NCBI GenBank assembly: GCA_020632415.1
Contig: JACKFO010000002.1
Coordinates: 578,732-642,731 of the forward strand
Reading direction: 5' to 3'
Source of the DNA: Candidatus Nomurabacteria bacterium
GTDB taxonomy: Bacteria > Patescibacteriota > Patescibacteriia > UBA1558 > GWA2-36-10
Length of the DNA: 64,000 nucleotides
The notes beneath the pieces are model-generated. The model was given only the letters and a program-made list of their open reading frames with translations, had not been told where the DNA came from and ran no database searches. The position numbers were made by a program, and so were the translations under genes. Every line of letters begins with the position of its first letter. Position 1 is the first letter of the stretch. This document shows, in pieces, positions 2,084-47,600 of the stretch.

Positions 2084-2100
2084 ATAATAAAATATTTACT

Positions 2101-9442: not shown

Positions 9443-9738
9443 TGGCCAATAAATATCAAAATTTAAACCAAAGCCAAGCCGAATTAGATTTTCATGATTT
9501 TAGTGTCTTGACTAAAGAAGAGATTATTAAAATTACTGACGATTTTATCAATGACGCTCAAGAAAAAAGCTATCAGCGAATTAGCTTCATTGTTGGTCAA
9601 GGAAAACACTCTAAAAATGGCGCCGTGATCAAGCCATTATTGGAAAAATATCTTACTACTCATCCCGAAGTAAGTCGTGTCCAAAAAGGCAAATTTAATC
9701 AAGGAGGCGAAGGGGTTTTAGTGGTAGATTTAAGCTAA
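9442..9738 (+). CDS. Smr-domain protein
   Basis: ELDFHDFSVLTKEEII…RISFIVGQGKHSKNGAVIKP matches the Smr (MutS2 C-terminal-like) fold. Its start overlaps the recombinase stop. Confidence 0.6.
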   Translation: MANKYQNLNQSQAELDFHDFSVLTKEEIIKITDDFINDAQEKSYQRISFIVGQGKHSKNGAVIKPLLEKYLTTHPEVSRVQKGKFNQGGEGVLVVDLS

Positions 9739-9740
9739 AT

Positions 9741-9810
9741 AAAAACAGAGCTAAAAATTTTATTAAACGCCGTTCCAGCTAAAAACATAAAATTTTTAGT
9801 TCTGTTTTTT
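9741..9810 (+). terminator. Long imperfect inverted repeat (20-bp stem, 29-nt loop) downstream of the Smr gene
   Basis: AAAAACAGAGCTAAAAATTT … AAATTTTTAGTTCTGTTTTT, followed by a T-rich tract. It could be the Smr terminator or a recombination site at the island boundary. Confidence 0.45.
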
Positions 9811-9831
9811 AAATTTGTTAAAAAAATAAGA

Positions 9832-9860
9832 GGCCCGGTTCTCGCGTGAGAACCGGGCCT
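9832..9860 (-). terminator. GC-rich rho-independent terminator of the foreign two-gene operon
   Basis: On the minus strand: GGCCCGGTTCTC-ACGC-GAGAACCGGGCC followed by CTTATTTTTTT. Sits 27 nt after the stop of the 1162-aa gene. Confidence 0.7.
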
Positions 9861-9886
9861 GATTGTTGCATATCGATTCAACGAAT

Positions 9887-13375: not shown

Positions 13376-13396
13376 GTCGTCTTCCTTTCAATTCGG

Positions 13397-26992: not shown

Positions 26993-27063
26993 AATTTTTA
27001 ATTAAATGATTATATTTACATTATAACAAAATATCGCCTGAGTGGCGATATTTAAAAAATATT

Positions 27064-31878: not shown

Positions 31879-31907
31879 TTGACTTAAATAGACTTTGTTG
31901 TTATACT
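31879..31907 (+). promoter_or_regulatory. Sigma70-type promoter of the tRNA operon
   Basis: TTGACT, a 17-nt spacer, then TATACT, ending 33 nt upstream of the first tRNA. Confidence 0.6.
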
Positions 31908-32134: not shown

Positions 32135-32210
32135 GGTGGCTATGGTGTAACGGTTAACACAGCGGTTTGTGGTACCGCTAATGAGGGTTCGATTCCCTCT
32201 AGCCACCCCA
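32135..32210 (+). tRNA. tRNA-His (anticodon GTG) with encoded G-1 and CCA
   Basis: Extra 5' G pairs with discriminator C73. Anticodon loop TTGTGGT. T-arm GGTTCGATTCC. Confidence 0.8.
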
Positions 32211-32215
32211 TAAAA

Positions 32216-32241
32216 ACGTCGCTAATCTTAGCGGTGTTTTT
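32216..32241 (+). terminator. Rho-independent terminator of the tRNA operon
   Basis: ACGTCGCTAA-TCT-TTAGCGGTGT followed by TTTTTATTT. Confidence 0.6.
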
Positions 32242-32360
32242 ATTTAATCCCAAATGGGGATAGAAATAATTTAAATTTTTAACAAAAGAAAAACCGGATG
32301 ACAGGGACAAGACTTAACTTGTTTATCATCCGGCAGTGAATCTTTAGGCCTTGAGCTTGT

Positions 32361-34358
32361 TTAGCTCTTGATCTCCTCCAAGAATCGATCAACACCAATA
32401 CGTTGACGCAGACGCTTCATACCACCATCGCCAATACCCGGCGACAGTCGATGTTTGCTGTCCAATTGGAAACAAAGTGCGTTGAGTTGATCACGCGCAA
32501 ATTCCGCCAGAGACATGATCTGCGTACTGAAGATAACGCTGACGCCAGATCTGGCTAGAGTGTTGAGTAGATCGCGACCTAGCTCGAAACCAGCCATCTC
32601 CTGTGTGCCGGTGCCAACTTCATCCAAAACTAGGACGACACGCTTACCATCAATTCCCTGTATCCCCCGTAGGATGTTACGGATCTTGCCCAACAGGATT
32701 TCACAGGTGGATCCTTCACCTCGTTGAGCGATGAAGACCATGCCCAGCACCTTCTTGACGTTGAAACGGAAAAACTGCCCAAAGACCGGCAATCCACTCT
32801 GAGCCAAAAAGATGTTGACGACAATGCCAATCTGCGTCTCACTCTTGCCGCCACCATGTTCGCCGGTCAAGGCAATCATGCGACCATTCAATTCCGGCAA
32901 AGAGTGTACCGGTACTACTTGACCCTTCTTCAGATGACAGAGCAACTGAGTCGGGTAAAGTTGACCAAACTCAACGACATGACCGTCCGTGACGATCTCG
33001 GGCTGACAGATTGGTACGCCGAATTTCAAAGCGGTGTCTTGAATGGATCGCAGGACCGAGATGACAACCTGCAGTTGATTCCAGTACTCAGCGAAAAAAT
33101 TTCGCTGATCTTGCAATGCCTCGTAAAGATCGTGAAATTCCTTGCCACGGTATTCATTGAGGATGGCAAACCAACGGAATTCACGATCCATGTTTAGAGA
33201 GGTGCTAAAGAAAGGCGTGAGAAATGAATGGTTCTGCCTCACAGCCGCAGCAATCAGTGCGTTATTGGCCTGAGCATGAGCTGCCTCGTCCCTTTTTCTC
33301 TGAATCAAGACTTCAGCTTTCATGATCTGTTGGTACTTCAAAGCATCGTAACCAGCAAAACCATCGGACAAGTTAACAGTCTTTCTGTCTTCAGGTTCGG
33401 GAATCTCCAGATGCAAAATCGTAATTTGCAGACCACTCTGATCATAGGAGAATTGTACCGTCGCCTGGCCACCATTAAGACTGGAATTGTCCCAGTGGAT
33501 TTTACGCAGCTTTCCGAGGACTGCTGATCGAATATCTTCGATCATGGAAGTTGAAATGCTATTGATGACCATAGCTTTGTAAGCTGGGCGGCAGCGGAGA
33601 AGATTTTTGAAATCAACCAACTTGCGCCGCAAAAAGCCAAAACCCAGCCAGTTGAAAGGATTCAGTGCATCGTGCGTCCACTTTGGATAAGCGAGTTTGG
33701 TGCTTATCTTCTGGGAATACTTGCGATGACCAAAGACCTCTCCACCTGAATACTCCAAATCAGAAACAAGGAAAAGGGACTGATCAGGATCAACGCCCAT
33801 CTTTTCCTTGACCGATTTCTCGACACCTACTGTTACCACTTCAAAGCTCATCCAGCCGTGCATGACCGTAATCTGTTCCACTCGTTGAGTGATGATGTCG
33901 GCCATTTTACGTTCGGCAGCTTCCAAATCGAGACCAACCAACAACTTATTGGCAATCATTTGCAGATCAGGAGGAGCATCCGGAGAATTCAGAATGAATT
34001 CTATCCACCCATGGACCATTGCCCAGTAGGGATTGTGTTCATTCTGGGGGTTGTAAAACTTAAGGAACTCTTCTTCATCAATCGGAAGACCGGCCGTTAC
34101 GCCAGATTCTTCAACCCAACTCGTAAAAGCAGGGTGACCTGTTAAGAAACGACAAAGATTGTGTCGACGATGTAACTCTTCCTCATTTGTGATTCCGAAG
34201 CTGGAAGCCAAAGACGAATCCTTGATACCAAGAGCTTTAAGAAATTCATCAACTGGCAGGTCCTCTTCGTTGATAACCTGCAAACGATCACGCTTGTGAA
34301 TCTTGGTCTTCCACAGCGGTTGAGCTGATGGATCCGGATACTTGATTGTGGTGGCCAT
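32361..34358 (-). CDS. MutS-domain-V (ABC-type ATPase) protein fused to a ~430 aa N-terminal domain of unknown function; GC-rich orphan
   Basis: The C-terminal ~220 aa carry a Walker A (TGEHGGGKSE), a Walker B (VVLVLDEVGTGTQEMAG) and a STQ motif in the ATH position, plus MutS-like C-terminal RLSPGIGDGGMKRLRQRIG. GC ~48%. A long GC-rich terminator hairpin (CCGGATGACAGGG…TCATCCGG plus T-run) sits at 32294-32332 on the minus strand. Confidence 0.65.
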   Translation of the reverse strand: MATTIKYPDPSAQPLWKTKIHKRDRLQVINEEDLPVDEFLKALGIKDSSLASSFGITNEEELHRRHNLCRFLTGHPAFTSWVEESGVTAGLPIDEEEFLKFYNPQNEHNPYWAMVHGWIEFILNSPDAPPDLQMIANKLLVGLDLEAAERKMADIITQRVEQITVMHGWMSFEVVTVGVEKSVKEKMGVDPDQSLFLVSDLEYSGGEVFGHRKYSQKISTKLAYPKWTHDALNPFNWLGFGFLRRKLVDFKNLLRCRPAYKAMVINSISTSMIEDIRSAVLGKLRKIHWDNSSLNGGQATVQFSYDQSGLQITILHLEIPEPEDRKTVNLSDGFAGYDALKYQQIMKAEVLIQRKRDEAAHAQANNALIAAAVRQNHSFLTPFFSTSLNMDREFRWFAILNEYRGKEFHDLYEALQDQRNFFAEYWNQLQVVISVLRSIQDTALKFGVPICQPEIVTDGHVVEFGQLYPTQLLCHLKKGQVVPVHSLPELNGRMIALTGEHGGGKSETQIGIVVNIFLAQSGLPVFGQFFRFNVKKVLGMVFIAQRGEGSTCEILLGKIRNILRGIQGIDGKRVVLVLDEVGTGTQEMAGFELGRDLLNTLARSGVSVIFSTQIMSLAEFARDQLNALCFQLDSKHRLSPGIGDGGMKRLRQRIGVDRFLEEIKS

Positions 34359-34538
34359 TCTCTGTTCCTCCGACTCTGTTTTTGAGGTTGTTGTTTCTCT
34401 ATAGACAATCTTTCAAAGTGCAAATTAGCGAGTTTATCGCAATGCCTTACTATATGATATTTTACTTATTTTGTCAACCTTATTTCTAACCACCTAAAAA
34501 CAACAAATGCCCCTCTTGAGAGATTACTAGAACTCCAT

Positions 34539-34649
34539 CAATTCTGATGAGTAAAAATAGTCTAAATTGTTATAGATAATTTTTCCGATTGACTTCACTG
34601 TTTTACCCCATCAGCAAACTACTCCCTAAAAGAGTAGTTTTTTGATATA
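34539..34649 (+). repeat. Repeated intergenic module copy 1: X (48 bp, promoter-like), an 18-bp spacer, then Y (45 bp with an AAACTACTC/GAGTAGTTT hairpin and T6)
   Basis: X = CAATTCTGATGAGTAAAAATAGTCTAAATTGTTATAGATAATTTTTCC, recurring at 38757-38804 with 44/48 identity. Y = ACCCCATCAGCAAACTACTCCCTAAAAGAGTAGTTTTTTGATATA, identical at 37489-37533. Confidence 0.7.
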
Positions 34650-34674
34650 CTAAAAACGTTATTAAATTTAAAAT

Positions 34675-35721
34675 ATGAAATTGTTTAAAAATCTGCAAAA
34701 TTTTAGCGACATGGTAATGTTTACCATCATTGGAGGGATAATCGGCTCTATATTGATTTTAGGAGGTTTTATTTGGTTAAAAATGAGCAGTCAACACAAC
34801 GATACATATTCGAGCAATGTGCCTCAAGTAATATCGAAATCAGAACATTTGAAATTAGTTAGTGATTATTGTTATTATGGAGATTGTTTGTTTCAGAACG
34901 AAGAAGAAAACAATAACTATGTTTTTGGTCTTACTACTTTGAAAGGTTGGCATTTTACTCGTGATAGCATAGGCATGGGTGGGGACAATGTGACTTGTGA
35001 TGCTTTTGTGATTGAAGAAGGCCCAAGGCCACTTGTAAATTTTTATAGAGACATAATAGAGAGTGGAAATAATTTTTATAATATTGATGAAAATGGTTAT
35101 TTTACTATAAATATAAATTTAAATAATTTATCAGATGACGAGAGAGCGCTTATTCTTAATTCTGATTCGTATCATCCTATTGAAATGATGATTTTTCAAA
35201 ATCCACCCCTTGGCAAAGGAGAAGCGGCCTGTATGAGCACTGTTCGTATATTAGAAATTGAAAAAGCAACGCCCACTTGGCAAACCTATAGAGATGCAAA
35301 AAATACATATGAGTTTGAATATCCATCGGAGTGGAGAGTGACGGAATATGCTAGTGAAAATATTTCTATAAGTATGGACGTTGTTGGAGATACGGTATTA
35401 TTCATGAAGGGCGTCTCTATTTTTCCATTAAGCCAAAACAGTGTAAATGTTTTGCTCGATGAATGGCAAGTAAAAAAACAGGATTCAAATCAAGGCATGG
35501 TAATTTTTGATTATTTGGAAAATGAAAATATATCAGGTCAAGAGGTTTTGGTTCGTAAATTTAGAAATCAGGACAATCAACACGGAGGAACTGACTATCT
35601 TTTTCCATTTAAAAAATTATTATTGGAAATTCCAGATTTGATAGAAAAAGATGGCGCATCTGAAGAATATACCAACACAGTACACGATAGATTTTGGAAA
35701 ACTTTCAAATTTCTAGATTAA
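34675..35721 (+). CDS. Membrane-anchored hypothetical protein, paralog 1 (MKLFKNL N-terminus, one TM, extracytoplasmic domain)
   Basis: Shares a 27-bp 5' leader and an MKLFKNL-plus-TM start with the next gene. Confidence 0.55.
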   Translation: MKLFKNLQNFSDMVMFTIIGGIIGSILILGGFIWLKMSSQHNDTYSSNVPQVISKSEHLKLVSDYCYYGDCLFQNEEENNNYVFGLTTLKGWHFTRDSIGMGGDNVTCDAFVIEEGPRPLVNFYRDIIESGNNFYNIDENGYFTININLNNLSDDERALILNSDSYHPIEMMIFQNPPLGKGEAACMSTVRILEIEKATPTWQTYRDAKNTYEFEYPSEWRVTEYASENISISMDVVGDTVLFMKGVSIFPLSQNSVNVLLDEWQVKKQDSNQGMVIFDYLENENISGQEVLVRKFRNQDNQHGGTDYLFPFKKLLLEIPDLIEKDGASEEYTNTVHDRFWKTFKFLD

Positions 35722-35765
35722 CTACTAATTTTTTTCTGTACTAAAAACGTTATTAAATCTAAAAT

Positions 35766-36956
35766 ATGAAACTTTTTAAGAATTTAAAAAGACACGAGTG
35801 GATCATAGCAATGGCTATTGTTTTTGGAATTATTGGGGTCATTGCTATAACGGGATTTTTTGTTAAGCGGGAATTTAATAAGCAAAAAAATGTTGTCGAT
35901 GTTCAAAGTGATGATGGTTGGCTGACTTATACAAATGAGAAAACACCTGTCTTGATATATATACAAGAAATAGTTAAAACAGGGAGTGACTCTAGAGCAT
36001 GGCCGACTGTGCAAATAATAGGTAAAGTTGGAGATAGCGATCCTGAGCTTCTTGCTGAAGTTGGCAAGGAGGACGAATATCCTGTTGGTTATAAATTGAG
36101 TCCTGATAACAAATCTCTTTTAATTAACCTAGAAAGTAAGCTCCAAATTTTAAATCTAGTCACCAAAGAACTAAAGGATTTGTTTGTACCTAAGCAACAA
36201 GTTGCCAGCATTTCTTATTCGCCTGATGGAAAACAATTATTTATTTGGGATCAAAAATATGGCCAACAAAACGGTGAATATTACGCTCACATTTTTGATA
36301 TTATCACACATAAAGATCAGATATTAAAACAAGGAAATATTGAGGGTTCATTTTTTAGTGTAGCCTGGCGTGATGATGGTAACGTCACGATGTATAAAGC
36401 TATGGGCGATTTTGCTCGGTCATATTATTTTAATTTAGCTACCAATGAATTACGAGAAACCCCAAATTCTTACACAACCGGCGTTGTAAGCACTAGTGGT
36501 AAATTGATGTCCACGATAAAAAAACACATACCTGATATCTGCAATGACATGAGCGGAAGCGCGCCTAGTTTATATAATATCATTGATCCAGTTTCAGGCA
36601 ATGTTCTAGGGATGGTTGGCAAAGCTAATTACAGCGTAGATATAATCGCTTTTTCTTCTGATGATAAAGAAGTTTTTTATAGAGCTGGAAAACCATGGAC
36701 CAATAGAGAGGATTGTGATAAAAATATAGAAAATAAATATTTTACGACCTTAATTAACACAGGAGAATCGAATGTAGTCATCAATCCTTCAGAGATTATT
36801 AGTTCTTGGGCTGGTAATTATATTGGAGCGTCATCTAAGTATAATTACAAAGAAAACACTTGGTCTATTTTAATTAACGATGAACCATTAATTACATCTG
36901 ACAAGAGATTGCAAATTGCGGGGCAATTCTATCTACAAAATACAGAAGAAAATTAG
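35766..36956 (+). CDS. Membrane-anchored hypothetical protein, paralog 2, with a TolB/PD40-like beta-propeller-type extracytoplasmic domain
   Basis: MKLFKNL plus TM. Repeats such as SPDNKSLLINLES and SPDGKQLFIWDQK are reminiscent of PD40 blades. Confidence 0.55.
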   Translation: MKLFKNLKRHEWIIAMAIVFGIIGVIAITGFFVKREFNKQKNVVDVQSDDGWLTYTNEKTPVLIYIQEIVKTGSDSRAWPTVQIIGKVGDSDPELLAEVGKEDEYPVGYKLSPDNKSLLINLESKLQILNLVTKELKDLFVPKQQVASISYSPDGKQLFIWDQKYGQQNGEYYAHIFDIITHKDQILKQGNIEGSFFSVAWRDDGNVTMYKAMGDFARSYYFNLATNELRETPNSYTTGVVSTSGKLMSTIKKHIPDICNDMSGSAPSLYNIIDPVSGNVLGMVGKANYSVDIIAFSSDDKEVFYRAGKPWTNREDCDKNIENKYFTTLINTGESNVVINPSEIISSWAGNYIGASSKYNYKENTWSILINDEPLITSDKRLQIAGQFYLQNTEEN

Positions 36957-36975
36957 CTAATATGTCAACATAATT

Positions 36976-37371
36976 ATGTCAAATAAAATTCAACAAATTT
37001 CTGTAAAGGCTGTTTTTCAAAAGGACAACAAAGTTCTTCTTGTTAAAGATCTTAAAAATGTTTGGGAGTTGCCAGGCGGACGCATAGAACATGGAGAAAA
37101 TCCAGAAGAAACCTTAAAGAGAGAAATAGAAGAAGAGTTGGGATGGAAAAATATACAAATAGAAAAGATACTAGATAGTTGGAGTTTTACTTCTCAAGTT
37201 CAAAATTCTCAATATCATTTTGTTATTCTAACTTATCTTTGCAGTACGCAAGAAGATGAAGTAAAAGAAAATGAAGAATACACAGAATATAAATGGACTC
37301 CTTTAAGCGAGATGGATTCTTTAGAGATGAAAGATGGATATAAAAAAACAATCAAAGAATTTTTATCTTAA
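36976..37371 (+). CDS. NUDIX hydrolase
   Basis: Nudix box GGRIEHGENPEETLKREIEEELGW. Confidence 0.75.
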   Translation: MSNKIQQISVKAVFQKDNKVLLVKDLKNVWELPGGRIEHGENPEETLKREIEEELGWKNIQIEKILDSWSFTSQVQNSQYHFVILTYLCSTQEDEVKENEEYTEYKWTPLSEMDSLEMKDGYKKTIKEFLS

Positions 37372-37488
37372 GTTAATTTAAATAGATTTTTACTTAATTT
37401 TACAATTTTCTATAGCTGCTAAATTTTCTTTTATATTAGCTATATACTCCTTATCTGAGAGAATGGTTATAATACGTTTCCGAGACTG

Positions 37489-37533
37489 ACCCCATCAGCA
37501 AACTACTCCCTAAAAGAGTAGTTTTTTGATATA
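37489..37533 (+). repeat. Repeated module copy 2 (Y element only)
   Basis: 45/45 identical to 34605-34649. Ends 26 nt before the ATG of the 37560 gene. Confidence 0.7.
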
Positions 37534-37559
37534 ATAAAAATATAATTAAAAATAAAATT

Positions 37560-37958
37560 ATGAAAATTATCTTAGGATATTTCTTGACTTTTTTAAGCTT
37601 TTTTTTGATCGATATGCTTTGGCTTGGTTTTTTAGCTAAAGGTGTTTATAAAAAATATTTAGGATCAATCATTGGCCAAGAAGTAAATTGGCCTCCGGCC
37701 ATGATATTTTATTTGCTTTTTGTTTTAGGAGTTGTTGTATTCGTAATTTGGCCGGCAATTGAAAAAAATTCTTTAACTCATGCAATTTTGTTTGGCTTGT
37801 TTTTTGGTCTAGTGACTTATGCTACTTATGATTTGACTAATTATGCAACTATCAAAAACTGGCCACTGCAAATCGTCTTGATTGATCTTGCTTGGGGCTC
37901 TGTGTTATCAATGATTGTTGCTTTTGTTGGTTTTTATATTTTTAAATACCTAAAATAA
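37560..37958 (+). CDS. Small polytopic membrane protein (DUF2177-like)
   Basis: 132 aa, four TM. Translationally coupled to the next gene through an ATGA overlap. Confidence 0.45.
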   Translation: MKIILGYFLTFLSFFLIDMLWLGFLAKGVYKKYLGSIIGQEVNWPPAMIFYLLFVLGVVVFVIWPAIEKNSLTHAILFGLFFGLVTYATYDLTNYATIKNWPLQIVLIDLAWGSVLSMIVAFVGFYIFKYLK

Positions 37959-38737
37959 TGTTTGAAGCATTTTTTATTAGCGCAATAACAATTTTTATTT
38001 ACGCCTCTCTTTGGTTCATTATTTCTTTGATCATAAAAAGAAATGACATTGCTGATATTGCTTGGGGTTTAGGATATATTTTGTTAGTTTTATTTTTTCT
38101 CTTTCAACAAAATAATACCTACGAAGACTACTTGCTTTATATCTTGATTATTTTATGGGGATTAAGATTATCCATTCATATATTTATCAGGAATCAAGGT
38201 AAAACGGAAGATTATAGATATAATCAGTGGCGTAAAGAGTGGGGAAAATATTTTTATATTCGCTCATATCTACAAATTTATTTACTACAAGGATTTTTAT
38301 TAATTTTGATAGCCTCGCCAATAATCTTAACTTCGGTTAATACAAATAATCATTTAAATTTTTTGAGTTTTTTAGGCCTCATCATTTGGTTTATTGGTTT
38401 TTATTTTAAAAGCGTCGGAGATTACCAATTAGCAAAATTTTTAAAAAACCCAGAGAACAAAGGAAAAATTTTAAAAACCGGTTTATGGCAATACACTAGA
38501 CATCCAAATTATTTTGGAGAAGTGACAATGTGGTGGGGCATATTTTTAATAGTTGTAAATTTAAATAATTTTGTTTATGCCTTAATGAGCCCATTGACTA
38601 TTACAATTTTGATTTTATTCATTTCGGGGGTGCCATTGTTAGAGAAAAAATATCAAGGAGATCCAGAATTTGAAAAATACAAAAAAGAAACTAATAAATT
38701 TTTTCCATCTTTTAGAAAAAATAAAATATCCTCTTAA
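37958..38737 (+). CDS. DUF1295/ICMT-like membrane methyltransferase-fold protein (steroid 5-alpha-reductase-like family)
   Basis: WQYTRHPNYFGEVTMWWGIF carries the RHPNYxGE signature of DUF1295 and isoprenylcysteine carboxyl methyltransferase-like proteins. Confidence 0.65.
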   Translation: MFEAFFISAITIFIYASLWFIISLIIKRNDIADIAWGLGYILLVLFFLFQQNNTYEDYLLYILIILWGLRLSIHIFIRNQGKTEDYRYNQWRKEWGKYFYIRSYLQIYLLQGFLLILIASPIILTSVNTNNHLNFLSFLGLIIWFIGFYFKSVGDYQLAKFLKNPENKGKILKTGLWQYTRHPNYFGEVTMWWGIFLIVVNLNNFVYALMSPLTITILILFISGVPLLEKKYQGDPEFEKYKKETNKFFPSFRKNKISS

Positions 38738-38756
38738 AACTTTACTATAGCTTTAA

Positions 38757-38856
38757 CAATTCTGATTAATAAAAATAGTCTAAATTGTTATAGATAATTT
38801 TTCCCTGCCTACCGGCAGACAGGAGATTGACCTCGCTGTTTTGCCTCATCAAACAA
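38757..38856 (+). repeat. Repeated module copy 3: X, a 19-bp hairpin insert CTGCCTACCGGCAGACAGG, then a diverged Y
   Basis: X is 44/48 identical to copy 1 (all differences fall in TGAG versus TAAT). The Y region has diverged (ATTGACCTCGCTGTTTTGCCTCATCAAACAA). Confidence 0.6.
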
Positions 38857-38952
38857 TCATTCCAAAAGGATATGGCAGCAGAAAAGCTTTAAACCCTTGC
38901 TTTTTCCTTAAAAAAAGACTACACTAGGTCAATAATTATCTAAAATATTCAT

Positions 38953-39075
38953 ATGGCAAAAAGATTACATGCTGTTGGCCGAGTACAAAAATCAAATTCC
39001 AAAAAAACTAAAAAAAGATTGGAAATAAAAAAAGCAATGCTCGAAGCCAAAGCTAACAAAAAAAAGAAGAAATAA
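38953..39075 (+). CDS. Tiny highly basic protein (40 aa, MAKRLHAVGRVQKSNSKKTKKRLEIKKAMLEAKANKKKKK)
   Basis: Hand translated. Lies downstream of repeat copy 3. A bidirectional terminator AATACCACCTTAAGGTGGTATT follows at 39083-39104, shared with greA. Confidence 0.3.
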   Translation: MAKRLHAVGRVQKSNSKKTKKRLEIKKAMLEAKANKKKKK

Positions 39076-39105
39076 TTTTAAAATACCACCTCTTAAGGTG
39101 GTATT

Positions 39106-39603
39106 TTATTCTATTTTTAAAACTTGATACTTGATATTTCTCTCTTCTGTTTTTAATTCAATAATATCGCCGACTTTTTTATCTAACAACAACTGCCCCA
39201 AAGGCGATGAATGAGAAATCACTCCTTTGCTCGGATCGGTTTCGACGGAGCCTAAAATCTGATATTTAATCTCTTGGCCATTAAACCCCAAGCTTACACT
39301 GTGTCCAACTTGAATTGTCTTTTTACTATTAGGATGAATAATCTCTGCTTTACCTAGCAAGTCCTCTAACTCTTTTAATTCCTGATTCGTTCTGCGCAGT
39401 TTACCTTTAGCAATTTGATAAGCAGCGTTTTCTGAAAAATCTCCATCAGCGGCATATTTTTTAACATCACTTGCTTGTCTGGGTCGAATTATTTCTTTTA
39501 TTTTTTGCAAACGTAAACTAAGTTCCTCAAATTTTTTTTTGGTCATTTTGGGATCTGGTCGCAAATCACTAAACTCCCCTCCTTTTCTAATTGGTACACG
39601 CAT
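39106..39603 (-). CDS. greA: Transcription elongation factor GreA
   Basis: N-terminal coiled coil plus C-terminal FKBP-like domain (ISHSSPLGQLLLDKKVGDIIELK). Confidence 0.85.
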   Translation of the reverse strand: MRVPIRKGGEFSDLRPDPKMTKKKFEELSLRLQKIKEIIRPRQASDVKKYAADGDFSENAAYQIAKGKLRRTNQELKELEDLLGKAEIIHPNSKKTIQVGHSVSLGFNGQEIKYQILGSVETDPSKGVISHSSPLGQLLLDKKVGDIIELKTEERNIKYQVLKIE

Positions 39604-39703
39604 ATTTTTCTAAACTATAGAGGCATCATAGATTAATTTGCTAAATTTAGCAACTGACAAAATATCCATTCACTCTTTTTAAAAAATATGGTAAATTATA
39701 TGC

Positions 39704-40102
39704 ATGTTGGGCTTAAAAAAAGAATTAGAATTTTGGAGATTTTTATCTCACTTCTGGGGAATTTTGACCGCTTTATTTTTTTTAGTTAATTTCTTAAAAA
39801 TTTTAGATTTATCTCAGGCGATAAAAACTGTAGCCGTTATCTATATTGGAATTTTATCATTATTTACCACGACCAAAGAATTTGCTCGCTGGAAAAATAA
39901 AAAATTTCTTTCCAACCATAACGGAGAATTATTTATTTTCATCTGGACAATTTTGATTTTAATTTTTATTTTCTTTAATGTCAGTGATCCGATTAAATAC
40001 CAAATCCCTGGAGAATTCACAGCCACTTATTTATCGATCTTGGGCATTTTTGCTATTAGTCGCCAATCTCGTAATTTTAAAAACCACAACATAAATAATT
40101 AA
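39704..40102 (+). CDS. Hypothetical small membrane protein
   Basis: ORF with four hydrophobic helices. Confidence 0.4.
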   Translation: MLGLKKELEFWRFLSHFWGILTALFFLVNFLKILDLSQAIKTVAVIYIGILSLFTTTKEFARWKNKKFLSNHNGELFIFIWTILILIFIFFNVSDPIKYQIPGEFTATYLSILGIFAISRQSRNFKNHNINN

Positions 40103-40111
40103 TAAGAAAAG

Positions 40112-40498
40112 ATGAAGAAGACAATCGTTACTATTTTCAGCGCTGGCCTGTGGATTACATTTTCTGAATTTTTTAGAAATGAAATACTTCTCAAAAATTA
40201 TTGGACGGAACATTTTGAATCACTTGGTTTAACATTTACAACCACAGCAATCAATGGCCTGATCTGGCTTGTATGGAGTTTTTCCTTGGCTTATCTAATT
40301 TATCAATTGCTAAAAAAATTCGACACCAAAAAAACTATTTCTTTGGTGTGGCTCGGCATGTTTTGGATGATGTGGCTAACTATTTACAACTTACAAACAT
40401 TGCCACTAAAAATTTTGATTTTTGCCATTCCTTTAAGTTTATTAGAAATCATGATAGCCGTATTAATTATTCAAAAATTAAAAAAGTCTTTATTGTAA
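40112..40498 (+). CDS. Hypothetical small membrane protein
   Basis: ORF with three to four hydrophobic helices. Confidence 0.4.
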   Translation: MKKTIVTIFSAGLWITFSEFFRNEILLKNYWTEHFESLGLTFTTTAINGLIWLVWSFSLAYLIYQLLKKFDTKKTISLVWLGMFWMMWLTIYNLQTLPLKILIFAIPLSLLEIMIAVLIIQKLKKSLL

Positions 40499-40515
40499 CT
40501 AACATCTAAAAATTT

Positions 40516-40956
40516 ATGACAATATTTATCGGGGCAGATCATAATGGTTGGCAATTAAAAGAAAAAATTAAGCTCGCTCTACAAAAACAAAGGCACAAAG
40601 TTAGTGACCAAGGAAATTTAAGTTTCCAAGCAACAGATGATTATCCTGACTTTGCTAAAAAAGTAGCTTTGATGATCAAAAAAAATAAAAACTCCGTCGG
40701 AATTCTACTTTGTGGTAGCGGCCAGGGCATGTGCATGGCCATTAATCGTTTTGCGCATATTCGCGCGGTCGTGGCTCATTCAAAAAGCGCAATCAAAGCA
40801 GCTCGCCAAGATGAAGATGTTAACGTTATTTGTTTGCCTGCCAAAGAATTAAATCTCAAAAAATCCCAGGAGTTAATCAAAGTTTTTTTTGAAACTCCTT
40901 TCTCAAAATTACCACGTCATCAAAAAAGAATTAAAAAATTAAGTAGCCTCAAATAA
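40516..40956 (+). CDS. rpiB: Ribose-5-phosphate isomerase B
   Basis: IFIGADHNGWQLKEKI … LLCGSGQGMCMAINRFAHIRAV matches RpiB/LacAB. Confidence 0.85.
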   Translation: MTIFIGADHNGWQLKEKIKLALQKQRHKVSDQGNLSFQATDDYPDFAKKVALMIKKNKNSVGILLCGSGQGMCMAINRFAHIRAVVAHSKSAIKAARQDEDVNVICLPAKELNLKKSQELIKVFFETPFSKLPRHQKRIKKLSSLK

Positions 40957-40960
40957 ATCA

Positions 40961-41605
40961 ATGCCTCAAAAAATTCAAATCATCCCCTCGCTTTTGGCCT
41001 TTGACTTAAATGAATTAGAAAAACAATACAAAAAAGTTGCCAAAGAATTTCCTCTCCTCCAACTTGATATTATGGACGGCGAATTTGTAAAAACCAAAAA
41101 TAATTTTAGCCCGCGGAAGATTAAAAAAATTGTTAAGACTACAAATCTTGAACTACATCTGATGGTCAAGGATATCAATAGCTACATTGGACCTTGGGCG
41201 CATTTTAAAAACACCAAAAAAATTATTTGGCACTACGAAGCAAACTCTGACCCAGAGGATATTCAAGCCGCTTTAAAATGGTTGAAAAAAAACAAAATCA
41301 AAGCAGGCCTTGCGATTAATCCAAAAACTAAATTAAAAAATATTTTGTCTCTCATAAAAAAATTCGATACTATTCTGATTATGAGTGTTACTCCTGGTAA
41401 GCAAGGCCAAAAATTTGATAAAAAATCTTTGAGTAAAATAAAAAAATTAAGAAAAAAATTTCCCCAACTAAATATCGAAATTGACGGGGGCGTCAACGAA
41501 AAAAATTACAAAAAAATTAGCAAAGCTGGTGCAAACTTAATCGTCATCGGTAGCTATTTACAAGAAGCTGAAAACTTAAAAACAGCGATTGCAAACTTAA
41601 AATAA
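40961..41605 (+). CDS. rpe: Ribulose-phosphate 3-epimerase
   Basis: PSLLAFD…LDIMDGEFV…HLMV…IDGGVN pattern. Confidence 0.85.
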   Translation: MPQKIQIIPSLLAFDLNELEKQYKKVAKEFPLLQLDIMDGEFVKTKNNFSPRKIKKIVKTTNLELHLMVKDINSYIGPWAHFKNTKKIIWHYEANSDPEDIQAALKWLKKNKIKAGLAINPKTKLKNILSLIKKFDTILIMSVTPGKQGQKFDKKSLSKIKKLRKKFPQLNIEIDGGVNEKNYKKISKAGANLIVIGSYLQEAENLKTAIANLK

Positions 41606-41669
41606 ATTGAGCTAAAAAACAACCAGAAAAATTACTGGTTGTTTTTATTTTCTTTAAACTAAAATGTTT

Positions 41670-44585
41670 CTACCAATCCTTCAACTTAAAGCTTAAGTTA
41701 TCTAGGATTCTAGTATACCAGTATCTGACTGGGATGGTAATAATATCTTGCCATTTAAAGCCTAGAGATAAGAAAGTGTTTTGGTCTTTGATCCAGTATT
41801 CTATACCGTCTTGAACATAGAAGACTTGAGGATAAGAACCATGTTTTAATAATTGTCCACTAGGATGAATGTCTGAGCTAGTAATGTTTTCTCCTATTGT
41901 GTAGTAACTAAAGTCTTCTGCTGGTAAGTTAACTATTTTATTGAAGTCATAACCAAAGTCAGAGAAGATATTAGCACTTGTAATCCATCTTAGGGTTTTA
42001 TTAGGCTCTACAGCATAGACTTTGTTAGAATCTTGGAATTTAACTAGATTACCTGGTTTAACAGTAAGTCTTCCAAGGTAAGGATAGCTATTATTTAAAG
42101 TAACTTGGTCTAAGGTTTGAAGAGAGTTGAAGTTATTAAACCAAGTGTAGAAAGTAGCTAGGTTAGGGATATAGTATCTTTTACTTTCTTGGTTAATGTA
42201 ATAGACTCTAGGATCTTGGGAAGCTTTGGCTAGAAATCCTTGAGGATAAAGGATGTTAAGAGAGTTTGGAGTTGTAGTGGCTGGAGTATCTTCTTCTATT
42301 TGGCAGAGGTAGGAACAACCATCACCATTGTTAAGGTTTCCATCGTCACACGTTTCTCCTGTTTCTATGATGGAGTTACCACATACTATTGGAGGGTTCT
42401 CTGGTGGTGGAGGTGGGTTTATCTCTTCATTACCTCCTCCATTGTCACAAGCAGAGCAAGAGCCTCCACAGTCTATTCCTGTTTCATTGCCATTTTGGAT
42501 ATTGTCTGTACATGAAGCTGGTGGTGGGGTTTCTTGTTCTATTTGGCAACTTGAGGAACAACCATCGCCATTGTTAAGGTTTCCATCATCACAGGTTTCT
42601 CCACTTTCTAGGATGGAGTTGGAACATTGAGGGACGATCATGGCAATATTGTAAACGCCCATATCAGGCTGCGCTCCTGAAAAATAATTTGTTGCAAAAC
42701 CAGGCAAAGGATCATAAGCTTGGTCGTCAATATTAAAACTCTGAGAAATATCAATACCAGACTCTCTAGCTAGGCTGTCTTCAGGCAAAAGAAAATTCGG
42801 AATAATTGAAGCATCCCACATGTATGATCCATCTTCCAAAAAATTATGCTCCCCAAACCAAGGAGGCAAAGGGTCATAATAATAATGCTCTCCACCATCC
42901 CAATTATAATCAAAGCCACCAAATAAATTTGTTTGTTGAATTAATTCCCTATTTAAATAAACTGTTCTAAAAGCAGAAAAAATATTGTTTACAAATAAGA
43001 CATTAGGATACCCCTCTTGCTCAATATTACTTAGACCAGAAAACATTTTATAAGCACCAGTAAAACTATTGTGATAAATATAAAAATGTGGGTGTGTCGT
43101 TCCTGCTGGCCAATCATCTAGATTAATCCTATGAGCAAAAATATGAGAACTTACTCCTTGAGGATTATAAAATTTATTTCTATAAATATAAGCACTTCTT
43201 TCATTGTCGCCGACTTCATCGGTATGATGCAATCTTAAATTAATATTAGCGTCTTTTAAGAAATTATCATGAATTTCTGTATTTTTACAATAAGAAATTT
43301 GTAGAATATTTATACTAGAACCACCCTCGATGTCATTAGTATAAATTTTGATTCCATCCATAGTATGTGTTGCATCACCCCAGATAGAAATGCCAATCAA
43401 ATTATTTCTTAACTGATTACTATATACTTCATTATAATCCCCTGCTGACTGCATAGCTATGCCATAATCAAAAGTACCGCCTGGACCAAACCAATATTTA
43501 TACATAATATAAAAAGCCTCTTTGACTAGAAAATCATACCTCTGCTCTTCGTTCCAGCCATCACTATGACGATCATCCCAAGCACCTGGCTGATAATTAG
43601 ATAAAAATTTTGGATTTAAATAATTGTCGTAAATATAATTATAAGAAGTTTGATGTCCAGTAAGATAAATTCTTCTAGACCCACCATAAATAGAATTATT
43701 TCTAATATGATTAAATTGCGCACCATTATTCAGGCTCACTCCATTTTCTCCGCCATAAATTTTAAAACCCTGAATAACGACATTGTATGCTCCATTGATA
43801 TTAATCGTTGAATCACCTTGATAATTAAATTTTAAATTCTCATTGTTTGGGTTTCTATTATCCCTAAAATGAAGATATAAATAATCTCCCTCATTACCAA
43901 ACAAAGCTTCCGTTGGATCCCAATAATCAATTAAATCATCGGGGTCAGCATGATAATGCAAATGTGTCTGTTGACCATCTTGGTAAGCTATCATTTCAAA
44001 ACCAGTATGTTCAGATAAATCATCTGCTTGAGCATTAACCAGATGAGAATCATCCATTATTGAACTTAAATCCTGATAAAAACCGGGAATTTTTTTATAG
44101 CTTGCTCCCTCTCCAATTGACATCACTCTCACTGGAACATCATTCTCTTTCATAATTTTCCAAACACCTATCCCGACTTCTGGTGCTTGCACCCAAGCAT
44201 GTTCTGAAAATCTTCCGCCATCAATAATTACTTCACCATCTGATTGAAAAATAATTGGCTCTTCTACTGTTCCCGACATAGTTATCTCAATCCTCTCATT
44301 ATATGTTCCTTGATGAACAATAACCGTGTCTCCAGCCGTAACGGTATCAGCAGCTTTTTGAATACTTCTCCATGGATTATCAGATGTCCCTAATCCTGAC
44401 ACATCACTACCAGAAACAGAAACATGGTAAGTATTAGCACTATCCGCCTTAGCAAAAAATGATGTATCTGAATTTTTAATGGAATAGCTAAACCAAATAT
44501 TAAACAAAGACAAAACAAAGATCGCCAGAACACTGACAATCATCCTATTTTTTAAAGTATCTTCAATTAGCTTAAAATGTTTCAT
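41670..44585 (-). CDS. Giant surface protein (971 aa): right-handed parallel beta-helix repeats, two Cys-rich CxxxxGExCDDGNxxxGDGC repeats, and a shared ~250 aa C-terminal domain
   Basis: N-terminal TM/signal anchor. PbH1-like repeats (NNSIYGG, HDNFL, NNIF). Myxococcus-type cysteine-rich repeats. A poly-Pro linker. The C-terminal 330 aa are near-identical to those of the next gene. Confidence 0.8.
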   Translation of the reverse strand: MKHFKLIEDTLKNRMIVSVLAIFVLSLFNIWFSYSIKNSDTSFFAKADSANTYHVSVSGSDVSGLGTSDNPWRSIQKAADTVTAGDTVIVHQGTYNERIEITMSGTVEEPIIFQSDGEVIIDGGRFSEHAWVQAPEVGIGVWKIMKENDVPVRVMSIGEGASYKKIPGFYQDLSSIMDDSHLVNAQADDLSEHTGFEMIAYQDGQQTHLHYHADPDDLIDYWDPTEALFGNEGDYLYLHFRDNRNPNNENLKFNYQGDSTININGAYNVVIQGFKIYGGENGVSLNNGAQFNHIRNNSIYGGSRRIYLTGHQTSYNYIYDNYLNPKFLSNYQPGAWDDRHSDGWNEEQRYDFLVKEAFYIMYKYWFGPGGTFDYGIAMQSAGDYNEVYSNQLRNNLIGISIWGDATHTMDGIKIYTNDIEGGSSINILQISYCKNTEIHDNFLKDANINLRLHHTDEVGDNERSAYIYRNKFYNPQGVSSHIFAHRINLDDWPAGTTHPHFYIYHNSFTGAYKMFSGLSNIEQEGYPNVLFVNNIFSAFRTVYLNRELIQQTNLFGGFDYNWDGGEHYYYDPLPPWFGEHNFLEDGSYMWDASIIPNFLLPEDSLARESGIDISQSFNIDDQAYDPLPGFATNYFSGAQPDMGVYNIAMIVPQCSNSILESGETCDDGNLNNGDGCSSSCQIEQETPPPASCTDNIQNGNETGIDCGGSCSACDNGGGNEEINPPPPPENPPIVCGNSIIETGETCDDGNLNNGDGCSYLCQIEEDTPATTTPNSLNILYPQGFLAKASQDPRVYYINQESKRYYIPNLATFYTWFNNFNSLQTLDQVTLNNSYPYLGRLTVKPGNLVKFQDSNKVYAVEPNKTLRWITSANIFSDFGYDFNKIVNLPAEDFSYYTIGENITSSDIHPSGQLLKHGSYPQVFYVQDGIEYWIKDQNTFLSLGFKWQDIITIPVRYWYTRILDNLSFKLKDW

Positions 44586-44675
44586 TTTACTTCTTTATTT
44601 TAACATTTTATAACATTTTAAAAAAGAGTCCCGTCTGACGGAGACTCTTTTTATTTTCTTTAAACTAAAATGTTT

Positions 44676-47600
44676 CTACCAATCCTTCAACTTAAAGCTT
44701 AAGTTATCTAGGATTCTAGTATACCAGTATCTGACTGGGATGGTAATAATATCTTGCCATTTAAAGCCTAGAGATAAAAAAGTGTTTTGGTCTTTGATCC
44801 AGTATTCTATACCGTCTTGAACATAGAAGACTTGAGGGTAAGAACCATGCTTTAATAATTGTCCACTAGGGTGAATATCTGAAGTAGTAATGTTTTCTCC
44901 TATTGTGTAGTAACTAAAGTCTTCTTGAGGAAGATGGATGATTTTATTAAAGTCATAACCAAAGTCAGAGAAGATATTGCCACTTGTAATCCATCTTAGG
45001 GTTTTTTCTGGTTCTATTGCATAGACTTTGTTAGAGTCTTGGAATTTAACTAGATTACCTGGTTTAACAGTAAGTCTTCCTTCGTATGGATAGCTATTAT
45101 TTAAAGTAACTTGGTCAATGACTTGAAGAGAGTTAAAGTTGTTAAACCAAGTGTAGAAAGTAGTAAGGTTAGGGATGTAATATCTTTTACTTTCTTGGTT
45201 AATGTAATATACCCTAGGGTCGTTAGGCGCTTTGGCTAGAAAGCCTTGAGCTTTTAAAACATTAATTGAGTTAGTGGTTGATGTCGCTTGATTGTCTTCT
45301 TCTATTTGACAGAGGTAGGAACATCCATCTCCATTGTTAAGGTTTCCATCGTCACACGTTTCTCCACTCTCTTGGATAGAGTTGCCACAAGCTATTGGAG
45401 GGTTCTCTGGTGGAGGTGGTGGTTGGTTTCCTCCTCCGTTGTCACAAGCAGGGCAAGAACCTCCACAGTCTATTCCTGTTTCATTACCATTTTGGATATT
45501 GTCTGTACATGAAGCTGGTGGTGGGGTTTCTTGTTCTATCTGGCAAGTTGAGGAACAACCATCACCATTGTTAAGGTTTCCATCGTCACAGGTTTCTCCA
45601 CTTTCTAGGATGGAGTTGGAACAAGTTGGGCCTGAGGCATATTCTAAAAGTCCAATGTCTGGAGCAAAGCCTTGGAAGTTGTTGGTGTTTACTCCACTGA
45701 TTAACATTCCTTGATCAATGGCTGGAGAATTAGATTGAAGAGTAAAGTTTTCTTGAGAGAAATTAGTAAACAATGGGTTAGTTTGGAGAGAAAGTGATTC
45801 TTGAGAAGAATGTGTTTTATAATCTGCAAAAACATATTCTGCGGTACTAGAATCCCCCAAATCCTGATAAACAAATTTTACCTCACTAGCATTTGGCGCA
45901 TAATACAAATTATTGTTGTAAGTATTAAGAGAATGATCAACATCGTAAGCTAAGCTTGCTGGAATTACTTTGTAAGGACTTGTCGAATAAAAAATATTAT
46001 TAGCAATCGTGTTGTCACGAACGTTATCGCCATCCGGAGCATCCATGTCGGCATAGACTTTAAGACCGTATTTAAAATCTCCGACAAAAATGTTATGAGC
46101 AATCGTGTTATTAATGCTGTAGGCCCAAGTCAAATCTGGATCAGTACCATCTGAATTTTCTAAAATAACCGCTGGGTAAGTAGAATTATCTTTTTCAGTT
46201 AAAATATCCAGAAATTTATTATAAATAGCAACGTTATTTTGACCAGCGTCAATATGCAAGCCAATTCCATATGGTGTATAAAATGTATTATTTTGCACCA
46301 AACTATCATCAGTGTCCGAAAGCCAAATTCCCGTTACCCAGCCTGGCGCAAAATAAGCTGGGTCTTCAACGATGTTATTATGAATATTAATTCGAGCTAC
46401 ACGATAATCAGCGGTGCCCTCTAGCAACATTCCATTTCCTCCTGCTCTAACAATGTGATTATTATAAACTTCAATATCTGAAGCATTGTGAATTGATAAT
46501 GAGGAGGCTAAATTAAACAAACCATTACCCTCGTGATAATTATCATGAATTGAAAGATCTTTGGTGTAGTAAGTCAAAGTGCCGCAGCTACCATTATTAA
46601 TAAATTGATTATTATAAATCTCCGAATTTACTGAATGATATTGACTACCATTAACACCAAAATTTGGACCATAATAATACAAACCAATTCCCCCGTTATT
46701 CTCTGCCAAAGAATTTTTAAAAATAATATTTTCATTATAATGTTCCGTGGTATAGTTTGGATTATAATAGGCATAAAAATAAGCTCCCGTCGAACCATTG
46801 TTATAAATATGTAAATCATCAAAAACTAGATCATGATTTCCTTCAATATCACGACTAGTTGTTTTTGTATAGACATATAACCCAATACTACCAGCGTAAC
46901 GAATATCAAAATTTCTAAATTCGATGTGATAAGATTCGTATTCTCCATTGGTTCCAAAATAAACAGCCGTTGAACGAGATGGTATTTCTACAATATGTGC
47001 CGAAGGATGACCTCCTGAAATGGTTCTAACATAGACATAGTCCGGATCCTCTGATTGTTCGCCCAATTGATACAAATATTCTCCCGCTGAATCTAAAAGA
47101 TTAAGATTATCAATCAAATGATAGGGACTCGTATCAGTCGGATCTCCATATTTAAAACTTTCATCCGGATTAGTCAATAAAAAATCATTTTCATTAGGAT
47201 CAGTAGAAAAAGTAGCAGTGCTAGTTTCTCGATCATAAGCAACGATCTTAGCTTTTTTATGCCAAAGATACTCGGTCATTATTTCTGCCCAAGAACCAAT
47301 GATTTTTTCATCAGGCAAAACATTCAGATCTGAATCGATCAAATATTCCCTAGTAAACATTGAGCTCTCTAATCTGTCTAAGTTATCTTCTGGATAACGA
47401 GCTGAATACAAAACCTGACCATCTTCAAAAACACCGCGATAGGCATCCTCGCTGTTGACCAAAGTTGTTCGATAAAGGCCATTGCCCATGTCTTCCCAAG
47501 CAGTTTTTAAAACTCCAGCCGAAAAGATAACCTCTTCATCTTGATACCCTTCGATCTTATTAGGTCTGCCAGCAACCCCATTTGGCCAATAATAAGAAGT

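Follow-up and report, generated by a model that had tools for sequence, protein, structure and literature searches.

Predicted terminator-promoter junctions as repeated modules of a variable gene array downstream of a transfer RNA cluster in a Candidatus Nomurabacteria genome

The window analyzed here, a stretch of 64,000 nucleotides (nt) from contig JACKFO010000002.1 of a Candidatus Nomurabacteria bacterium, contains two short repeated elements (i.e., X and Y) in the spacers of a small accessory block. The block lies between a cluster of transfer RNA (tRNA) genes for Arg, Lys, and His and a gene encoding a basic protein of 40 amino acids (aa). The window is placed in Patescibacteria by the homologs of its GreA and DUF1295 proteins. 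The original prediction described X and Y as a reiterated promoter-like and hairpin module, possibly a small RNA (sRNA) family or a shared leader. We consider it likely that the two elements are instead parts of intergenic junction modules that were duplicated within a strain-specific gene-cassette array, at a locus that is variable across the clade and extends from the tRNA cluster to the 40-aa gene. The finding is best read as largely ordinary and not as an sRNA family. The features of the array, with the promoters and terminators as predicted, are as follows.

31899 to 31907, plus strand: promoter of the tRNA operon, extended -10 box TGTTATACT, 35 nt ahead of tRNA-Arg; the same box stands at the same place in the relative L003
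31941 to 32210, plus strand: tRNA-Arg(TCT), tRNA-Lys(CTT), and tRNA-His(GTG); the 3' end of tRNA-His, ACCCCA, lies at 32205 to 32210
32217 to 32245, plus strand: terminator of the tRNA operon, CGTCGCTAA-TCT-TAGCGGTG followed by T5, which co-varies with the tRNA-His terminators and array junctions of relatives
32361 to 34358, minus strand: cassette C1, gene of a 665-aa, weakly MutS-domain-V-like ATPase; G+C content, 0.45 to 0.52, versus about 0.30 in the flanks
34449 to 34477, minus strand: promoter of the MutS-like gene, TTGACA-17-TATAGT (-35/-10), not the promoter type of the host
34496 to 34538, plus strand: left part of repeat A1, with a putative remnant (about 25 nt) of a DUF1295 3' end and its stop codon (..AAAAACAACAAATGCCCCTCTTGA); aligns with 38717 to 38756, which spans the real DUF1295 stop codon at 38735 to 38737
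34539 to 34586, plus strand: X copy 1, containing TGTTATAGATAAT; exact core at 34552 to 34586
34587 to 34604, plus strand: tail after X (the "leader," GATTGACTTCACTGTTTT), homologous to 38825 to 38842
34605 to 34649, plus strand: Y copy 1 (Y1); ACCCCA at 34605 to 34610, hairpin at 34616 to 34640, T6 at 34638 to 34643
34643 to 34651, plus strand: extended -10 box of Y1, TGATATACT, reaching 2 nt beyond Y; ATG 23 nt after the box
34675 to 37371, plus strand: cassette C2, membrane-anchored proteins of 348 and 396 aa and a NUDIX hydrolase
35726 to 35783, plus strand: degenerate 3' half of the module (T-run, untranslated region [UTR], ATGAAA..) ahead of the 396-aa gene, 88% identical to 34635 to 34692
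37464 to 37473, plus strand: -10-like box TGGTTATAAT, 15 nt upstream of the Y2 core
37489 to 37533, plus strand: Y copy 2 (Y2), with core ACCCCA, hairpin at 37500 to 37524, and T6 at 37522 to 37527
37527 to 37535, plus strand: perfect extended -10 box of Y2, TGATATAAT, reaching 2 nt beyond Y; ATG 24 nt after the box
37560 to 38737, plus strand: cassette C3, DUF2177 (132 aa) and DUF1295 (259 aa) membrane proteins
38717 to 38851, plus strand: repeat A2, comprising the DUF1295 3' end, X copy 3 (38757 to 38804), a GC-rich 20-nt hairpin insert (38805 to 38824), the tail (38825 to 38842), and a degenerate core, GCCTCA (38843 to 38848)
38850 to 38864, plus strand: relic of a second type of terminator, CAAACAATCATTCCA, 15/15 identical to the 5' arm of the intact module of relatives
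38897 to 38925, plus strand: promoter belonging to the 40-aa gene itself, TTGCTT-17-TACACT; it is conserved in two relatives (L007 and L008)
38953 to 39075, plus strand: conserved gene of the 40-aa basic protein, the far boundary of the variable array in the clade
39079 to 39108, both strands: bidirectional terminator common to the 40-aa gene and the convergent greA gene (39106 to 39603, minus strand)

X and Y are present in two copies each, all inside 4.3 kb, and the remaining 60 kb of the window has no further copy. The copies of X (34539 to 34586 and 38757 to 38804) differ at 2 of 48 positions; the predicted 48-bp repeat thus recurs where it was placed, but its exact stretch is the 35 nt shared by 34552 to 34586 and 38770 to 38804. 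A 29-mer from this core, TAGTCTAAATTGTTATAGATAATTTTTCC, had exactly two matches in the window (34558 and 38776) and none in 100 shuffles. The copies of Y are identical over the full 45 nt (zero expected by chance), as had been stated, and their 3' ends lie 25 to 26 nt ahead of the ATG codons at 34675 and 37560, in agreement with the spacing of about 25 nt reported earlier. Contigs from two independent read sets (Logan, k = 31; SRR12358676 and SRR14234111) matched the window exactly at 34620 to 37518, 37504 to 38799, and 38775 to 41671, and their ends coincide with the first or last 30-mer of the exact X and Y repeats. Each repeat therefore has two different flanks in those read sets too, and the repeats are not an assembly artifact of this window.

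The arrangement of the elements differs from the one first proposed. An X-Y module had been counted in three copies, yet X and Y occur together in copy 1 alone; copy 2 is just Y, and copy 3 is X joined to what remains of a hairpin of another kind. The similarity to X seen upstream of Y2 was not significant (P of about 0.28) and was not used as evidence. The three genes downstream had all been called small, whereas their proteins are 348, 132, and 40 aa long. The extra perfect hairpin noted in copy 3 is present (CTGCC-TACC-GGCAG, 38805 to 38818) and forms part of the 20-nt indel at 38805 to 38824. The elements do punctuate an accessory block after the tRNA cluster, although the 2-kb MutS-like gene separates the cluster from copy 1.

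Judged by its structure and position, Y is a predicted intrinsic terminator that runs into the promoter of the downstream gene and would represent the ordinary junction of the clade. Its hairpin (AAACTACTC, a 7-nt loop, and GAGTAGTTT) has a 9-bp stem with three G-C pairs and is followed by T6, as originally described; the terminator pattern was matched on the plus strand only. The folding energies of Y1 and Y2 are -13.9 and -13.7 kcal/mol, with z scores of -4.0 and -4.4 against shuffles. Y2 begins 118 nt after the stop codon of the NUDIX gene, on the same strand. At the 3' side, TGTTATAAT-like boxes are a repeated feature of upstream regions in the window. The motif TGNTATAAT (i.e., TGnTATAAT) occurs eight times in the window, and all eight copies are intergenic, with intergenic DNA making up about 15% of the sequence (chance, about 3e-7). 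We take this extended -10 box to be the promoter signal of the genome. One of the eight copies lies inside Y2 (TTTTTTGATATAAT, 37522 to 37535), 24 nt before the ATG of the DUF2177 gene. The Y1 version, TGATATACT, has one mismatch, and its hexamer is TATACT, as in the promoter of the tRNA operon.

The same layout (i.e., a hairpin, T4 to T7, and G-n-TATA[A/C]T) was found in 35 cases in seven clade genomes. A folding energy of -5 kcal/mol or better was obtained for the upstream 48 nt in 24 of these cases, and the ATG lies at +23 to +29 in 16, which is the mode (Y1, +23; Y2, +24). With other sequences, the layout recurs in the window at 27031, 16850, and 44615. Y therefore ends about 25 nt before a start codon because its 3' end is the predicted promoter of the downstream gene, and the hairpin, being upstream of that promoter, would not be in the leader transcribed from it. 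Compared with known intrinsic terminators that lead straight into an extended -10 promoter lacking a -35 box, Y is alike in its G-C-containing stem, its T6, its TG-n-TATAAT or TATACT box, and its clade-typical distance to the ATG, and there is no difference in kind. Relative to plain terminator-promoter junctions, what is notable in Y is the tight fusion, in which the T-tract of the terminator supplies the T of the promoter's TGn, and the exact reuse of 45 nt at two junctions. These observations provide a usable promoter rule for the clade (i.e., a T-tract, TGnTATAAT, about 25 nt, and ATG, with no Shine-Dalgarno sequence).

Genes of the clade lack Shine-Dalgarno sequences in the window and in the upstream regions of L005, L054, L058, and L061. 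They have in common an A/T-rich 5' UTR motif, ATTATTAAA, placed some 11 nt beyond the -10 box and some 10 nt short of the ATG. This motif may signal translation initiation or, in the case of near-leaderless mRNAs, may act as a second promoter element. In two relatives, L058 (7490, 9403, and 18077) and L061 (290, 1617, 4264, and 10523), near-identical terminator-promoter modules (AATCGCC-loop-GGCGGTTTTTTTTGGTATAAT) are reused across spacers. Reiteration is therefore a general habit of the clade and not peculiar to the window.

Alignments of the three copies revealed a composite structure. Copies 1 and 3 are homologous over 118 and 135 nt, respectively (34496 to 34613 and 38717 to 38851), with the 20-nt indel, and the left end of this homology overlaps the DUF1295 stop codon. 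The left part of copy 1 corresponds to copy 3 (A1/A2 alignment score, 107; shuffle maximum, 31), and its hairpin part corresponds to copy 2 (Y1/Y2 score, 117; shuffle maximum, 32). The UTR and N terminus of the 348-aa membrane protein gene match those of the 396-aa gene (score, 76; shuffle maximum, 34), and these two have the 5' UTR and the first 42 aa in common and nothing more. On this basis copy 1 is a three-way mosaic of the left part of copy 3, the hairpin of copy 2, and the UTR and start of the next gene, which points to recombination between modules as the way in which the array was built. Copy 3 carries the relic CAAACAATCATTCCA, identical at all 15 positions to the 5' hairpin arm of two relatives in which the hairpin-T6-TGATATACT module is intact (L005, 6539 to 6553; L003, 13523 to 13537), and can therefore be read as a truncated junction of a second hairpin type.

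A long-range helix in copy 3 (GAUUGACCU/AGGUCAAU) was considered and rejected; it is not conserved in L007 or L008. In the AT-rich spacers of a relative, a GC-rich 24-nt element, CCTGTCCTGAGCG(A/T)AGTCGAAGGA, occurs in both orientations (L003, 10590 to 10613 [minus] and 11604 to 11627; L005, 3606 to 3629 [minus] and 4620 to 4643). The 20-nt insert of copy 3 (CTGCCTACCGGCAGACAGGA, 38805 to 38824) loosely resembles it, and both may be small palindromic insertions.

X, together with its tail, is noncoding DNA that follows DUF1295. The homology of copies 1 and 3 starts 21 nt before the DUF1295 stop codon in copy 3, and the matching stretch in copy 1 (..AAAAACAACAAATGCCCCTCTTGA) looks like a remnant, about 25 nt long, of a DUF1295 3' end. 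As copy 1 keeps this remnant beside X, X would have been copied as the right-hand end of a DUF1295 cassette. X reads AAATTGTTATAGATAAT, without a T-tract, and offers either the hexamer TATAGA, in which the final T is missing, or GATAAT without TG. The -10-like GATAAT pointed out in the original prediction is thus present, but it lacks the TG and fits the clade consensus poorly; X diverges from the extended -10 consensus and was not listed by the promoter scan. Comparisons of X with the tRNA-His flank (32259 to 32281) and with an L061 promoter/UTR gave P values of 0.004 to 0.024 (mononucleotide shuffles, AT-rich sequence). They hint at a decayed promoter/UTR relic, a suggestion that is too weak to claim and on which we do not rely.

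Searches for further copies of X yielded no true relatives. An nhmmer profile built from both X-plus-tail copies found nothing below an E value of 3, whether in the rest of the window or among 15 related loci, and viral contigs scanned for X, Y, and the tail gave no exact matches. Genome and metagenome contigs were scanned for X only. Its 20-mer CTAAATTGTTATAGATAATT had one chance match among the genome contigs, in a cyanobacterium, and 41 matches among the metagenome contigs, all with unrelated flanks. Most of the 41 belong to a repeat family of another organism (samples Ga0056114, Ga0056129, Ga0056130, and Ga0209680); in these loci (L013 to L053) the 20-mer happens to fall within a dispersed, conserved repeat longer than 200 nt that dozens of contigs of an unrelated organism carry. 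A mini-open reading frame with a TTG start in the tail (MTSLF..) was also rejected. Of the four differences between its copies, two are synonymous (not a significant share), no ribosome-binding signal accompanies it, and copy 2 does not contain it.

The locus has different contents in relatives. L003 and L005 have the same tRNA cluster, followed by a different array (encoding proteins of 165, 413, 190, and 149 aa and others) that ends at a 42-aa homolog of the 40-aa gene. L061 has tRNA-His, a 10-kb array of other genes, and then a small basic gene. In L006, the 3' end of tRNA-His contains the end of a large serine recombinase open reading frame (1521 to 3080), whose product has Resolvase, Recombinase, and Zn_ribbon_recom domains; this indicates that an element is integrated at exactly this tRNA-His site in a relative. 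Because the contents differ at the same place in L003/L005, L006, and L061, the locus is a clade-wide variable site. The small basic protein gene that marks the far end of the array (window, 38953 to 39075; L005, 8437 to 8565; L007, L008, and L054 to L063) is often convergent with greA. It encodes a lysine/arginine-rich protein of 39 to 49 aa (MAKRLHAVGRVQKS...). Conservation of this protein extends over at least 18 protein clusters of the clade, and it belongs to no Pfam family.

Several junctions in this locus begin with the last bases of tRNA-His. In the window, 3 of the 18 ACCCCA sites are intergenic (i.e., the tRNA-His end, Y1, and Y2), and each is followed by a terminator. The identity between Y1 and Y2 has its left edge exactly at ACCCCATCA, with which both start. 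Given this edge and the restriction of intergenic ACCCCA to the tRNA-His end and the two Y copies, descent of Y from the 3' flank of tRNA-His is plausible. In L005, a 56-nt duplicate (4650 to 4705) of that locus's own tRNA-His 3' flank starts exactly at ACCCCA (score, 82; shuffle maximum, 27) and makes up the spacer that follows the first gene of the array. ACCCCA with a terminator behind it also stands ahead of successive single genes in L057 (2743, 3369, and 4131) and L058 (6227 and 7460). At L057 2743, about 25 nt of the 3' half of tRNA-His is kept upstream of the core (P < 0.001), and the same junction module stands ahead of unrelated genes in L057 and L058, which are two species.

RNAalifold gave no consensus for eight junctions because the stems sit in different registers. 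With five hairpins registered by hand (three tRNA-His terminators and two junctions), 97.5% of the cells were paired, five of eight pairs had changed on both sides, and none of 500 shuffles reached the score. A different kind of event is seen between L005 (7445 to 8547) and L056 (1 to 1844). The two are 99.6% identical over 919 nt, after which identity falls abruptly to 73%. A 760-nt indel (a 61-aa gene and TspO) lies just ahead of the small gene, with its breakpoint right after the stop codon of the 149-aa gene and not at ACCCCA. This pattern indicates an apparently recent exchange of array segments between otherwise diverged genomes.

Within the array of the window, foreign composition is seen at C1 only (G+C content, 0.45 to 0.52); C2 and C3 are host-like (0.29 to 0.34). 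The match of the 665-aa protein to MutS domain V is weak (E = 0.0017), and its gene has a G+C content of about 0.47. The MutS-like gene is probably foreign and recently acquired, and it probably replaced most of an earlier DUF2177-DUF1295 cassette. No recombinase or integrase gene was found between 32210 and 38950; the nearest recombinase in the window, a 265-aa tyrosine recombinase (8645 to 9442), is 23 kb from the island. In a blastn comparison of the block with phage and plasmid collections, the DUF1295 coding region alone was matched, by distant homologs.

On the interpretation that we favor, of duplicated junction modules, Y would end the transcription arriving from upstream and would start the mRNA of the gene downstream. 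It would do so through a fixed order of parts, namely ACCCCA (the 3' end of tRNA-His), the 9-bp terminator hairpin, T6 running into the extended -10 box (TGATATAAT or TGATATACT), and the ATG 23 to 24 nt farther on. X plus its tail would stand once after the intact DUF1295 gene and once after the 25-nt remnant of a lost second copy. The array may have been built by recombination between modules, whether by unequal crossing-over, by gene conversion, or by integration at the end of tRNA-His. The original prediction had itself named duplication remnants of one intergenic region as the outcome that would refute it; this is close to what the evidence indicates, with the addition that the Y-type module recurs in relatives.

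Several points weigh against this interpretation. Both Y copies have a -10-like box 15 to 30 nt upstream (X in copy 1 and TGGTTATAAT in copy 2), as a short promoter-to-terminator transcript would need. Y1 now has no same-strand gene upstream to terminate, and only the DUF1295 remnant of about 25 nt and X are found there. The perfect cores of 35 and 45 nt sit inside flanks that are only 63 to 85% identical; recent gene conversion or selection on the signals would therefore fit, and one old duplication does not. The Y copies of the window share with tRNA-His a core of only 6 to 9 nt (ACCCCAT[C/A]A) and the layout, and the sequence upstream of these cores is not significantly similar to the 3' half of tRNA-His (P values of 0.2 to 0.3; not used as evidence). 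The activity assigned to the terminator and promoter of Y is that expected from consensus and position.

In the reading closest to the original prediction, X would be an active promoter and Y its terminator, yielding an sRNA of 50 to 65 nt or an attenuator-type leader that controls the downstream gene. Besides GATAAT, X does contain the heptamer TGTTATA, and 11 of the 14 TGTTATA sites of the window are intergenic; TGGTTATAAT stands 15 nt before the Y core of copy 2, so that a terminator follows within 20 to 35 nt of a -10-like box at both Y sites, much as in trans-acting sRNAs and terminator-type attenuators, and transcripts of 48 to 60 nt are physically possible; and the X core is perfectly conserved between diverged flanks. 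However, X lacks the T-tract and the final hexamer T of clade promoters, the downstream genes have their own consensus promoters after the terminator, and copy 3 has no intact terminator. Only about 20 to 30 nt of RNA would precede the hairpin, and no alternative (antiterminator) fold was predicted for it. An Rfam 15 gathering scan of the whole window returned the three tRNAs only; at an E value of up to 10, a scan of 34300 to 39200 gave chance-level matches only, outside X and Y. A search for sRNA targets found complementarity to start regions no better than chance. Homologs and covariation in relatives, as expected of an RNA family, were not seen: X plus its tail had no match in the 15 loci, and only the generic terminator-promoter part recurs. 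What survives of the original prediction is that the elements are transcription signals (a box resembling a promoter, and a terminator formed by a hairpin and its T-run) that punctuate the accessory block; regulation by an sRNA or a leader we regard as improbable. Even less credible, to the point of being very improbable, is insertion of X and/or Y as small mobile repeats, such as miniature inverted-repeat transposable elements, repetitive extragenic palindromic sequences, or Correia-like elements. Small repeats carrying promoters and terminators are known in other bacteria (e.g., the Correia elements of Neisseria), and Y is largely palindromic with a sharp left boundary. Against this, there are only two copies of each element in the 64-kb window, confined to 4.3 kb; terminal inverted repeats with target-site duplications are lacking; the homology fades gradually into the flanks, coding remnant included; and the collection scans described above returned no match.

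Serial site-specific integration at the 3' end of tRNA-His is a tentative alternative that we rate below the general reading, although it is a specific account of how duplicated junction modules could have arisen and not its denial. Integration would have laid down C1 (32211 to 34604), C2 (34611 to 37488), and C3 (37495 to 38842), the junctions would be attachment-site relics, and X plus its tail would represent an arm conserved on the element side in two related elements that carried DUF1295. The repeat boundaries exactly at ACCCCA in independent junctions (Y1 and Y2 of the window, L005 against its own tRNA flank, three in L057, and two in L058), the tRNA-His relic at L057 2743, the module shared ahead of unrelated genes by L057 and L058, the serine recombinase of L006, and the foreign composition of C1 all argue for it. 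The concept is also established: tandem islands at tRNA or transfer-messenger RNA (tmRNA) genes are flanked by direct repeats of the gene's 3' end, as in the Dehalococcoides islands specific for ssrA (PMC3146451), and tandem accretion of integrase-less, cis-mobilizable elements is known (PMC5704250). Yet the island of the window has no recombinase, its shared core is short and its upstream tails are not significantly tRNA-like, and the cassette indel between L005 and L056 breaks after a stop codon; the abrupt drop in identity there speaks for general homologous recombination. The same outcome would be expected if terminator-promoter modules had undergone unequal crossing-over. A further step would be to regard the locus as a dedicated gene-capture site, in which small cassettes of one to three genes, each with a terminator-promoter unit, are inserted or shuffled at ACCCCA(T) by a recombinase that acts in trans or was lost, with X plus its tail as the recombinase-binding arm. 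This we consider unlikely, if somewhat less so than the sRNA or leader reading. If true, an ultrasmall symbiotic bacterium of the Nomurabacteria/Parcubacteria clade would have an integron-like system for which a tRNA gene is the anchor.

Like tRNA and tmRNA islands, the array of the window is variable and partly foreign and starts at the 3' end of tRNA-His, and the short core that opens its junctions matches the final bases of the tRNA; a serine recombinase gene adjoins the tRNA in one relative, and longer relics of the tRNA 3' end are kept in others. Unlike those islands, the cassettes of the window are very small (1.3 to 2.9 kb; one to three genes), the core is 6 to 9 nt, the island has no integrase, and a terminator and a promoter are present at each junction as well; recombination at a specific site is here only a candidate mechanism. 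Integron arrays resemble it in their serial short cassettes of unrelated genes, set apart by related separators of about 50 to 110 nt with imperfect palindromes. The cassettes of integrons are mostly promoterless, whereas those of the window bring their own promoters; the array is anchored at a tRNA gene, and no IntI, attI, or attC architecture was seen (attC was not searched for with a dedicated model). As for sRNAs and attenuators, X-Y differs from them in showing no conservation, covariation, alternative structure, or family match and in having the gene promoter downstream of the terminator.

The case illustrates that a striking promoter-plus-hairpin repeat can be a genome's normal punctuation copied by recombination, and that the gene's own promoter should be located before a terminator fused to the following promoter is taken for an sRNA or an attenuator. 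The conserved hypervariable locus (i.e., tRNA-His, array, and 40-aa gene) is a place of turnover for membrane and surface proteins and foreign genes. The hint that recombination uses the 3' end of tRNA-His as its core would, if true, bear on how genomes of less than 1 Mb with few mobile elements acquire genes.

Two other regions of the window were noted. A 5-kb block within 8645 to 14995 has a G+C content of 0.50 to 0.54, versus about 0.33 for the host, and encodes a 1,162-aa protein without a Pfam match and a 532-aa protein with a Por_Secre_tail domain (type IX secretion sorting). It adjoins the tyrosine recombinase and looks foreign, possibly of Bacteroidota origin. At 41642 to 47921 lie tandem paralogous genes encoding proteins of 971 and 1,081 aa, which contain DNA blocks that are 94 to 95% identical (41642 to 41941 and 44648 to 44947; 42430 to 42626 and 45427 to 45623) and therefore provide further evidence of local duplication in this genome.

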